This document shows positions 36,659-38,367 of a stretch of DNA of 64,000 bases, one piece after another. Each line of letters starts with the position of its first letter. Positions within the stretch are counted from its first letter, which is position 1. Below the pieces are notes generated by a model. That model searched no databases and was not told the DNA's origin. It saw nothing but the letters and a program-made list of their open reading frames with translations. This DNA comes from Candidatus Latescibacterota bacterium. GTDB taxonomy: Bacteria; Latescibacterota; UBA2968; GCA-2709665. The stretch spans positions 5,056,001 to 5,120,000 of the forward strand of contig OZ220733.1 in NCBI GenBank assembly GCA_965116875.1, read 5' to 3'. A program made the translations under genes and the position numbers.

Positions 36659-38367
36659 TCAATGATACGCATGCTGAGCGATGGCTTCCACGAATTCAGG
36701 CGCTTCGATTTCTTCGAATCTCTTTTCGATGATTGAGACCGCGCCGGCTTTTTGCCAGGTTTCCCAATGTATCCGGAGGGTCGCGTGCACGTTTTCGGCG
36801 AGCCGGTCAGGCTCCGGGTGGACGATCACGAACCGTCGACCCTCCCTTCCGGCGTACCAATCCATCAACTCGTTGTTGACTCCCCTGTCGCCAAAGCCGT
36901 ATCCGCAAATTACCATTGTGTTCGCCTTTCCAACGGTCGACCTGAAGCAGTCCAGGAGTTCGCGAAATATCCCTGAGCCATCGTTCGAAAGCTTGTTGAA
37001 CGCGCCGATCAGCAGCATCCTCGGGATATCTTCCGCGTACAGAAAGGCGCCGTCAACCTCGATGCGCTGGGGATACAGATCAGGCGGGATGCGTCTGACT
37101 CTCCCGTCCCTGTAGCGGTACCAGTCTATAGAACCACGCAATTTCAGGAACGGAATCTTCACCTCCGATATGAGATCGCCGTTCCAGGGCGAAATGTCAT
37201 CCTCGCCGCCGGCAAACCCGTCGGCGAGCGAAACGTTCCTGTCCTTCAAAAACGCCTCGACGTGGGAATCGTGACAGAGCGTCGATATACAGGTTACGTT
37301 GAAGGCCTTACACGCGGTTTCGACGGCATTTAACCTTGATTCCTCATTTTTCGAGGACGTTAATTCGAATATGTGTCAGTAAAAAAGGCGATTTAACTGC
37401 TGATTACCAGGATACACCAGGACACTGTACGTGAACGGAAAAAATGTCCTTCATGACGACCATTTCGGCCCGTTTCGAAAGGTTTCGTCGCGGTGCCGCG
37501 TTGCGGCTTTTGCGGAATTAAGGTTAACTGGCGGGTGCGGTCCGGTTCGGGCCGGTAAAGCAGAAGGCTTCGCCTCACGACGTCCGCGATGTAGTTGCAC
37601 GTTTCCCCCAACAAGCCGCAAAGGTCGTCCGGAACGCCCGTCCGGGATGAATGTACTGCGGCTTCGCCTCTTGTCACGACTGTTTGGGTGAGTGACAGCC
37701 AGTTGGCCCTCAGCCTTTCCACAAACAGGCGAAGCGCCGGATTCTCCGTCTCGCCCAACTCATCATCCAGCGCCTGCCGCGCGAGGAAGTATATGTCCTC
37801 GTAATTGGCCTTCCGGTCGACGTATGTGGAAAGGTAAGACTCAGCCTCCTCATGAAGTCGCTTCACCATGCCCAGGGGTAATCTTACTTCCGCGGTTTTC
37901 GGTTCTTCGCCGCCGCTGATGTAAAAACACCCGTCGCCGTGCCGGGTAACGCCCCGTCCGGAAACAACCTGGTCGGTGAGGTCCTGCATCGAAGGGAAAC
38001 CGGCCGCTTCCGACGCGCCGGCGCCCAGAAACATGGCGATATTGGTATTCCTGTAGACGCCATGCCCTTCCCGCAGCCTGGGCGGGGGCTGATAGCGTTC
38101 GACCTGAATGCGTTCCTCCTGCCGCCGGGCTTGCAGAAGGTCGTGAGCCGTCTGCCTGCGCAACCAGTACTCGGCATCGGACCACCCGGCCTTCTCCAAT
38201 CGAATCGCCATTTCGGGCGAGATGCCCGCGTGTCCGTTGAGCACCCTGGACAGCGTGTGACGGGCCACGCCCAACACTCTCGCGGCGTCCGTGACGTTGA
38301 GGCAGAGCGGATCGAGCCAGTTCTCGACGATGCTGATACCGGGATGGGGCGGTTTCTCCATAGCCAT
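36659..38367 (-). pseudogene. HigA-type HTH fused to a SIR2-like domain, interrupted by a MITE
   Basis: N-terminal PPHPG...[13 protein letters not shown]...[16 protein letters not shown]; after MITE removal ISTLCHD, KLRGSIDW, ICGYGFGD; 1515 bp in frame. Confidence 0.82.
37334..37523. mobile_element. 190-bp MITE with TTAA target duplication
   Basis: TTAA-CCTTGATTCCTCA...TGCGGAATTAAGG-TTAA; excision restores the reading frame; homolog at 25289-25478. Confidence 0.88.

Follow-up and report, generated by a model that had tools for sequence, protein, structure and literature searches.

Locus and interrupting element

In the 64,000-nucleotide stretch of Candidatus Latescibacterota DNA analyzed here (contig OZ220733.1, positions 5,056,001 to 5,120,000; hereafter the window), positions 36659-38367 of the minus strand are a single gene for a 504-amino-acid (aa) protein, which joins an antitoxin-type helix-turn-helix (HTH) of the HigA kind to a SIR2-like domain and is broken by a miniature inverted-repeat transposable element (MITE). 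The gene caller had reported the locus as a 324-aa open reading frame (ORF) that enters the insert and a 196-aa ORF. An earlier note on this DNA had proposed that the ORF pieces conceal one 504-aa gene with four SIR2-like motifs in the right order, split by a MITE with a duplicated TTAA, and translation of the pieces bore this out. The N-terminal piece is stop-free, encodes 281 aa and ends in ...PDRTRQL. The C-terminal piece translates to LNAVETACKAFNVTCISTLCHDSHVE...AYH (also given as LNAVETACKAFNVTCISTLCHD...AYH), followed by a stop codon. Excising 190 bp and one TTAA restores the frame CAG TTA AAT GCC and leaves 504 codons and a stop codon (1515 bp), and the rejoined gene contains FLGAGAS, TLCHD, KLRGS and GYGFGD, all present and in that order. 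Compared with P0003, an intact ortholog, the N-terminal piece is 86% identical to residues 1-286 and the C-terminal piece is 87% identical to residues 278-504.

The interrupting element has the features of a MITE: it is short and transposase-free, carries terminal inverted repeats (CCTTGATTCC / GGAATTAAGG; 10 bp, 9/10 matching), is flanked by a target-site duplication and is present in many copies. A 198-bp query made from it had 42 matches in the 5.45-Mb genome to which the window belongs, and blastn against the same genome gave 96 matches at E<=1e-5, of which 29 were near full length. The element duplicates YTAA on insertion, because 21 of the 29 near-full-length copies have identical flanks of this type (4 bp; 13 TTAA, 7 CTAA and 1 TTGA). 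We take this target choice to be typical of IS5-family elements, hence an IS5-type MITE is our candidate for the family. The element resembles IS5-type MITEs in its shortness, inverted repeats, lack of an ORF, many copies and 4-bp YTAA duplication, but differs in that no matching autonomous partner was found in this genome, so that the assignment is provisional. The sole pair of ends lying 0.4-4 kb apart (2.2 kb) was rejected as an autonomous element since it encloses a CHAD-domain gene and not a transposase. At C1:2146197-2148425 of the same genome (L111), two copies of the MITE ends flank a 511-aa CHAD-domain gene in a possible composite arrangement.

The insertion into the gene is recent. 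The inserted copy shares 98-99% identity with the closest copies elsewhere in the genome, and intact orthologs have Leu or Val followed by Asn at the insertion site (CAG TTG/GTG AAT). The ratio of nonsynonymous to synonymous substitution rates (dN/dS) between the broken gene and its relatives is 0.18-0.29, which indicates that constraint has not relaxed. One contig in each of the public runs X3 and X4 joins 37331 to 37526 with 194 bases absent, so an uninterrupted allele exists in related populations; in runs X1 and X2 the contigs stop within the MITE repeat. The copy in this genome is nevertheless a pseudogene and the gene is dead, and no second SIR2-like copy (paralog) was found in the genome. 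At most, the broken gene could yield a 324-aa product in which the HTH and half of the SIR2 domain are followed by a MITE-encoded tail. The features of the locus and its two flanking genes are collected in Table 1.

Table 1. Positions of the fused gene, its parts, its control region and its flanking genes in the window
Feature	Position	Strand	Basis
Whole broken gene, 504 codons	36659-38367	minus	504 codons, interrupted by the 190-bp MITE
N-terminal piece, codons 1-281: HTH, linker and first half of SIR2-like domain with LGAGAS loop	37524-38367	minus	translation
C-terminal piece, codons 281-504 and stop: second half of SIR2-like domain	36659-37333	minus	translation
HigA-type helix-turn-helix, residues 3-82	38122-38361	minus	TIGR02607, HTH_3
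Cys300 (codon TGT), opposite the catalytic Asn of TTNYD	37274-37276	minus	profile alignment to PsSIR2 (8w9l)
Arg346 (codon CGT), opposite the catalytic His of KLHGS	37136-37138	minus	aligned to PsSIR2 H212
MITE inserted at TTAA, bounded by terminal inverted repeats and lacking an ORF	37334-37523 (190 bp)		repeats, copies, empty site
Target-site duplication TTAA, copy 1	37330-37333		read from sequence
Target-site duplication TTAA, copy 2	37524-37527		read from sequence
Promoter-like site TTGACA-17-TACATT, ~270 nt upstream of start codon	38634-38662	minus	consensus scan, 10/12 matches
Perfect 16-bp palindrome CGCGTACC/GGTACGCG in promoter spacer, candidate operator	38641-38656		inverted-repeat search, conservation
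Conserved non-coding 5' leader, ~260 nt	38368-38633	minus	aligned in 9 loci
Terminator-like hairpin followed by T run, just past stop codon	36579-36593	minus	sequence scan
Fic/DOC gene, 385 aa	38754-39911	minus	PADLOC SoFic model, 1e-109
AAA_14/DUF4143 ATPase gene	35272-36552	plus	PADLOC candidate system PDC-S01, 5e-118

Intact orthologs, antitoxin-type head and control region

Searching longer proteins with the C-terminal piece yielded 69 matches, 12 of which are 500-504 aa long and 62-88% identical to the query. The 114 proteins found with the SIR2 part included the same 12 fused proteins (500-504 aa) along with one internally deleted form (P0039). We then scanned one genome per species, which gave 282 relatives, and kept the best 80 loci (L031-L110). 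In nine of them (L031-L039) a single open frame of 504 or 500 codons aligns with the query over residues 1 to about 503, with 66-100% identity; the records of these nine are metagenome-assembled genomes that carry the label Candidatus Latescibacterota or Gemmatimonadota. When 1.84 billion representative sequences were searched, only one of the best 150 clusters (50% identity) spanned residues 1-281. All nine fused loci occupy the same chromosomal position as the window gene, with genes of 286, 313 and 198 aa upstream. The last of these we take to be coaE from its size and position; the gene content between these genes and the fused gene, and behind the fused gene, is variable. The synonymous divergence (dS) of the gene among the fused loci is 0.3-1.1. 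Intact single-frame orthologs thus occur in 12 proteins and 9 loci: the fusion is real, has a narrow distribution and, with dS reaching about 1, is old.

We compared the nine fused loci and the window in 45 pairs by the Nei-Gojobori method (NG86). The dN/dS of the HTH part was 0.04-0.21 and that of the SIR2 part was 0.18-0.32 across all 45 pairs, and both halves are thus under purifying selection. The earlier note had called for full-length uninterrupted homologs and had named as the opposing case that HigA and SIR2 might always be separate genes, joined here by accidental read-through. The 12 protein clusters of 500-504 aa and the nine loci with one open frame under purifying selection supply the homologs and remove the opposing case.

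The head of the protein was matched by TIGR02607 (antidote_HigA), an equivalog model, at 82.3 bits against a cut-off of 47.7 over residues 3-82 (window piece P0002), and by HTH_3 at E 9e-5. It is 60-79% identical to many stand-alone proteins of ~100 aa. The note's description of the N-terminus as a complete HigA-type HTH is therefore sound. Compared with a usual HigA, which stands alone and is paired with an adjacent HigB gene, the head in the window and in the 12 orthologs continues in frame into SIR2-like sequence of ~400 aa, and the window locus has no such partner. The note had reported no intact higB upstream and we likewise found none: the HigB family PF05015, with stops read through, matched at only three distant places in the genome, and tblastn of three HigB-like proteins from the same genome against the upstream 390 bp of the window and nine orthologous loci gave scattered matches with a best E of 0.06. 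The ORFs upstream of the fused orthologs encode PIN-domain, HicA-like or family-less proteins. The unit also differs from a type II toxin-antitoxin (TA) operon, with its separate toxin and antitoxin, in being a single polypeptide without a second gene.

Several side observations concern this region. In L031 (7292-7684) and L035 (7294-7695) the fused-gene promoter is closely preceded by a gene for a PIN-domain (VapC-like) protein of 130-133 aa, a gene that the window lacks, and HicA-like ORFs lie upstream of the fused gene in L032 and L034. Within the HTH, the summed contig depth at 38182-38262 peaks in runs X1 and X2 (331 and 16.6, versus ~12 and 0-1 alongside). The peak falls within the most conserved part of the HTH, where many other HigA genes of the community probably map.

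Conservation among the eight aligned orthologous loci begins at the promoter; further upstream, where neighbors differ, the sequences are unrelated. The block ...CTTGACA.GCGTACCGGTACGCGATACATT is nearly invariant in all eight, and the palindrome in the promoter spacer is part of this conserved region. Its 14-bp core occurs once in the 5.45-Mb genome, and allowing one mismatch adds four other sites, versus two for a control pattern. From its position, conservation and uniqueness, the palindrome fits a predicted operator of an autorepressing HigA-type dimer. The earlier note had spoken of a self-regulating module; the unique palindrome in a conserved promoter suits that part of the proposal, with binding itself a prediction.

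The leader between promoter and start codon has Jukes-Cantor (JC) distances of 0.24-0.41 where gene dS is 0.3-1.1, and it evolves two to three times slower than synonymous sites at the deeper divergences. A search of Rfam found no match in the leader at E<=1, RNAalifold on the leader alignment gave an unsupportive covariation term (+1.01), and no small ORF frame was common to the nine sequences. A higB remnant was considered, as the leader is similar in length to a higB gene, and was rejected as a coincidence of length, since PF05015 and tblastn did not support it. In L031-L038 the leader lies at about 7748-8000 and is conserved beyond synonymous sites. The leaders of L031 and L033 (7748-8003) are 96% identical (JC 0.04), versus a dS of 0.34-0.39 in the coding part (8001-9515), a contrast that suggests recombination within the locus.

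The SIR2-like domain and its relatives

We modeled the intact ortholog P0003 with AlphaFold (mean predicted local distance difference test score, pLDDT, 73; predicted template modeling score, pTM, 0.71). On this model the C-terminal domain has the predicted fold of anti-phage SIR2 proteins, nearest to the SIR2 of SIR2-HerA. Foldseek returned 56 PDB matches at E<=0.001, whose top 39 ranks are all SIR2 of SIR2-HerA, the best being 8wld, 8w9l and 8sub (E 3.8e-8 to 1e-7, probability 1.0); FAM118B, DSR2, ThsA and SPARSA come after these entries. The HTH part of the model has a pLDDT of <50, and only 12 alignment rows cover it. A profile of 40 family members searched against PDB gave the same neighbors, with 8j4u at E 1.4e-5 and 8w9l at E 1.3e-4. 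The PADLOC models Aga_SIR2 and SIR2 matched the window C-terminal piece at 7.9e-14 and 2.1e-12, and PADLOC SIR2 models reached 1e-13 to 1e-17. With Pfam SIR2_2 (cut-off 24.5), the window piece (18.2) and P0003 (22.7) fall below the cut-off, and P0009 (27.6) and the unfused P0022 (33.1) lie above it; NCBIfam SIR2_antiphage gave 29.6 bits versus a cut-off of 500. The earlier note had left room for the C-terminal part to match no SIR2 profile. The PADLOC models, PDB profiles and fold speak against that doubt, which retains the Pfam score of the window piece in its favor. The GAGxS NAD-binding loop reads LGAGAS in the window, with G115 kept in 76/80 loci and S119 in 75/80.

A structural study of SIR2-HerA from Paenibacillus gives N163, D165 and H212 as putative catalytic residues of its SIR2 protein, PsSIR2, and states that mutating the catalytic residues abolishes protection (PMC11472057). 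In our alignment, N163 stands opposite the family Cys (TLCHD versus TTNYD), D165 opposite Asp and H212 opposite the His of KLHGS. The window thus has Cys, Asp and Arg (KLRGS), and keeps one of the three PsSIR2 residues, the Asp. Over the 80 loci, the Asn position holds N in 42, C in 31, S in 5, F in 1 and a gap in 1; the Asp position holds D in 76 and E in 3; and the His position holds H in 73, R in 5 (all fused), D in 1 (L090, whose frame is only 280 aa) and a gap in 1. In a separate alignment of 28 unfused and 12 fused proteins (A1), His is present in 28/28 unfused proteins, and the fused ones divide into 5/12 with His and 7/12 with Arg. The codons concerned are CAT for His and CGT, CGC or CGA for Arg. 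We placed the His/Arg label on a maximum-likelihood tree of 24 rows, with the window row joined with X at the break. Four changes were needed (bootstrap range 3-4), and at least two are required by branches with good support. The catalytic His has therefore been lost repeatedly, and in the fused clade only.

Other motifs decay within the fused clade as well: the GAG loop reads LGSDAS in L037, and the CHD motif has become TLFQD in L033 and TLSHE in L038 and L039. At P0003 positions 300 and 304 two forms of the family can be told apart, NHDxL in 42 loci and CHDxH or SHDxH in 36. Loss of the Asn goes with gain of a His four residues on (CHDxH versus NHDxL), and the fused clade lies within the CHDxH subfamily, throughout which the alignments place Cys at the catalytic Asn position. 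The dN/dS values are alike among His/His, His/Arg and Arg/Arg pairs. Because of this likeness, and because the Arg/Arg pair L038-L039 has a SIR2-part dN/dS of 0.25 at a dS of 0.42, the SIR2-like domain appears to be retained by selection even without the classical catalytic His. Two of the three catalytic positions are altered, and selection persists once the His is gone; on these grounds the SIR2 domain in this lineage resembles a pseudoenzyme or a sensor more than an enzyme that depletes NAD+. The claim of the earlier note that the protein is an NAD+-depleting effector is supported by the SIR2 fold and profiles, but is made doubtful by the Cys for Asn in TLCHD and the Arg for His in KLRGS.

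Unfused relatives are ~380-430 aa long and scattered over many phyla. Their neighbors are heterogeneous, and include housekeeping genes, integrases, transposases, a GmrSD-like gene, a methylase with a HATPase_c_3 protein, Fic, and AAA_14/DUF4143. Neither HerA nor any other constant partner was found among the 57 + 121 neighbor ORFs of relatives that were scanned, nor beside the window gene, whose neighbors are Fic and AAA_14/DUF4143 and not the adjacent HerA ATPase of SIR2-HerA. A search for phage-borne close copies gave 11 viral loci, all with distant SIR2 proteins of 20-34% identity and mostly partial. An antitoxin gene lies directly before the SIR2-like gene in 6/71 unfused loci. In L043, L045 and L056 an Escherichia coli-type HigA overlaps or abuts the SIR2-like start, and in L052, L054 and L055 a HicB precedes it; L045 and L056 also have a HigB-like ORF, and L054 and L055 a HicA-like ORF (named by eye from their translations). 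The resulting three-gene rows of toxin, antitoxin and SIR2-like gene (L045, 138-2129; L056, about 7158-9218; L054, 7284-9179; L055, 531-2410) could be tripartite modules, higB-higA-SIR2like and hicA-hicB-SIR2like. One protein, P0071, is a HicB::SIR2-like read-through form, and the near-identical L055 has the two genes separate, ~100 bp apart. Including the fused clade, 15/80 loci are antitoxin-linked, with antitoxins of three kinds, and they probably reflect three events, because the loci within each kind are close relatives. The earlier note had an antitoxin HTH grafted onto an effector; the fused clade is real, but the family is not a fresh graft throughout, as some unfused relatives sit behind complete higBA or hicAB operons.

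The flanking Fic and AAA_14/DUF4143 genes named in the earlier note were both confirmed by profile matches, and the PADLOC check it had called for places SoFic-like and PDC-S01-like genes in the island. Only 4/9 orthologous loci have the Fic gene ahead of the fused gene, so it came later into the space that separates the fused gene from the 198-aa gene. An AAA_14/DUF4143-like gene lies directly upstream of the unfused SIR2-like gene in L083 and downstream (419 aa) of the fused gene in L031 and L035. The RelE pair that the note placed nearby found weak support: of the two small ORFs at 34101-34958 on the plus strand (170 and 113 aa), the second (34617-34958) matched ParE_toxin at E 0.059. By eye, this 113-aa ORF resembles the genome's third HigB-like match, at C1:2406620.

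Readings of the fused gene

The explanation that best joins these observations, and to which we would give an even chance, is that the locus held a selected, autorepressed HigA-HTH::SIR2-like gene, a domesticated and non-catalytic effector that is now dead through the MITE. Under this explanation the HTH dimer would bind the palindrome and repress its own promoter. The SIR2-like domain would descend from stand-alone conflict effectors of ~390-400 aa that were probably NAD+-processing, and that are in places wired behind type II antitoxin genes, as in the higB-higA-SIR2like and hicA-hicB-SIR2like rows. The fused clade would have been giving up its catalytic machinery, with Asn replaced by Cys subfamily-wide, His by Arg at least twice, and the GAG loop or the CHD lost in some members. 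In the window's lineage the domain would then serve as a non-catalytic ligand-binding or oligomerization module that modulates the DNA-binding head. Judged from the aligned sequences, the SIR2-like domain of this lineage is most likely a domesticated effector and not an NAD+ depleter.

A number of points weigh against this explanation. The proposed loss of NADase activity comes from two positions only, and the five fused orthologs P0003-6 and P0009, which keep the His, the GAG loop and the CHD, may be active enzymes. The correlated changes of N to C and of L/V to H that produce CHDxH could have made a new active site without the classical residues. The NG86 ratios of Arg-bearing pairs would average the time before and after His loss, unless the common ancestor of a pair already had Arg. 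The operator role of the palindrome is predicted from position, conservation and uniqueness, and the low pLDDT of the HTH in the P0003 model leaves no predicted domain-domain contacts to be read from it. The antitoxin link is seen in only 6/71 unfused loci and may reflect three events, and the linked antitoxins have toxins of their own, so that adjacency may mean co-regulation or nothing.

A first alternative is that the protein is an active NAD+-depleting abortive-infection or toxin effector, whose own HigA head represses transcription until a trigger arrives, in a single-chain TA-like module. We consider it fairly unlikely, though the His-bearing orthologs may be active NAD+ depleters. The nearest folds are anti-phage SIR2 NADases, and the His-bearing orthologs keep GAGxS, D, H and GYxFGD. 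The gene lies in a variable island with SoFic-like and PDC-S01-like genes, its relatives adjoin integrases, transposases, GmrSD and TA genes, and an enzyme both toxic and costly could account for the repeated loss of its catalytic His. There is also a precedent in the HigA-HTH::effector protein PD-lambda-2B, which is toxic on overexpression (PMC9519451). Against an active effector, the Asn position is Cys subfamily-wide, and the His position is Arg in the window and in 7/12 fused orthologs. Purifying selection appears to persist in the Arg lineages, although a toxin that had been inactivated would have no need of it. Inheritance of the fused gene is vertical, at a single place in the chromosome, unlike that of a mobile defense gene, and no close relatives were found in viral contigs.

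We regard as unlikely, and put forward tentatively, a further reading: an undescribed SIR2-like family plugged into type II antitoxin circuits, either as third gene after higBA or hicAB or in fusion with HigA, of which one fused lineage was domesticated to a transcription factor with a dead sirtuin sensing NAD+ or a related signal. If true, it would show an immune effector midway in its conversion to a regulator, and the repeated loss of His would be the trace of that change.

It seems to us more doubtful still that the CHDxH subfamily, Arg variants included, is an enzyme with a changed site, which would carry out ADP-ribosyl transfer or other NAD+ or nucleotide processing through Cys300, His301 or His304. 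In its favor, N to C is coupled to L/V to H (31 loci with C and 5 with S, versus 38 loci with H at 304), conservation of C300, H301, D302 and H304 in A1 is complete or no lower than 90%, and constraint persists in the Arg lineages. Non-canonical NAD-processing sirtuins are known, FAM118 being one (PMC12700824). However, the CHD decays within the fused clade (TLFQD in L033; TLSHE in L038 and L039), and all 28 unfused A1 members keep the classical His, so it is needed there. An accidental fusion, whether by loss of a stop codon or by an error of assembly or annotation, or two separate genes in the window, is highly improbable and was rejected: P0071 does look like a simple hicB read-through, its parts being separate in the near-identical L055, but here the same frame is open in nine independent loci (66-100% identity) with an HTH under constraint (dN/dS 0.04-0.21), and the break coincides exactly with the MITE and its duplication, the uninterrupted form appearing in empty-site contigs of other runs.

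SIR2 domains are a main NAD+-depleting weapon in bacterial immunity, and are known fused to SLOG, STAND, APAZ and large sensors. The best fold and profile match for the family is SIR2-HerA (Nezha; 8w9l, 8wld, 8sub, 8j4u), with which it shares GAGxS, DGF, KLHGS-W and GY.FGD..IN. It differs in that HerA was not found alongside, Cys takes the place of Asn, the window has Arg for His, and a HigA HTH is fused; identity is only 12-16%. ThsA of Thoeris, DSR1/DSR2, the SIR2-APAZ of SPARSA and Avs5 likewise join a SIR2 effector to a controlling domain and gave weaker but significant fold matches. Their partners are instead SLOG, large helical sensors, APAZ/pAgo and STAND ATPases, and they keep the Asn and the His.

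The fusion of a DNA-binding head to another domain has parallels outside the SIR2 effectors. In Rex, NadR and NrtR an HTH is joined to an NAD-binding or NAD-metabolizing domain. The arrangement of a DNA-binding head with a nucleotide-binding sensor is alike, and the Arg-bearing fused proteins may work in this manner; unlike them, the family has no homology to those sensor domains, and the palindrome scan points to its own promoter only. RES-Xre modules reportedly consist of an NAD+-acting toxin and an Xre/HTH antitoxin that neutralizes it by binding. They are the nearest precedent for the logic of the earlier note, although they consist of two separate proteins and the RES fold is unrelated to SIR2. 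PD-lambda-2B of E. coli has a HigA-like Xre HTH fused to a C-terminal peptidase (Vassallo et al. 2022; PMC9519451). It resembles the fused family in joining an antitoxin-type HTH to an effector-type domain in a defense context and differs in its peptidase effector; the PD-lambda-2 system also has a HigB-like gene upstream and a third gene, whereas the window gene stands alone, without higB, behind its own promoter. In searches of freely available main texts, we found no description of a SIR2 domain fused to, or placed behind, a HigA or HicB antitoxin.

For this genome, the result means that two ORFs reported by a gene caller are the halves of one pseudogene broken by a MITE. For the family, the His-bearing members, if active, would represent a new single-gene and self-repressed effector design. 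If the Arg-bearing members are selected pseudoenzymes, the fused clade would offer a natural series in which a toxic immune enzyme is disarmed and reused.

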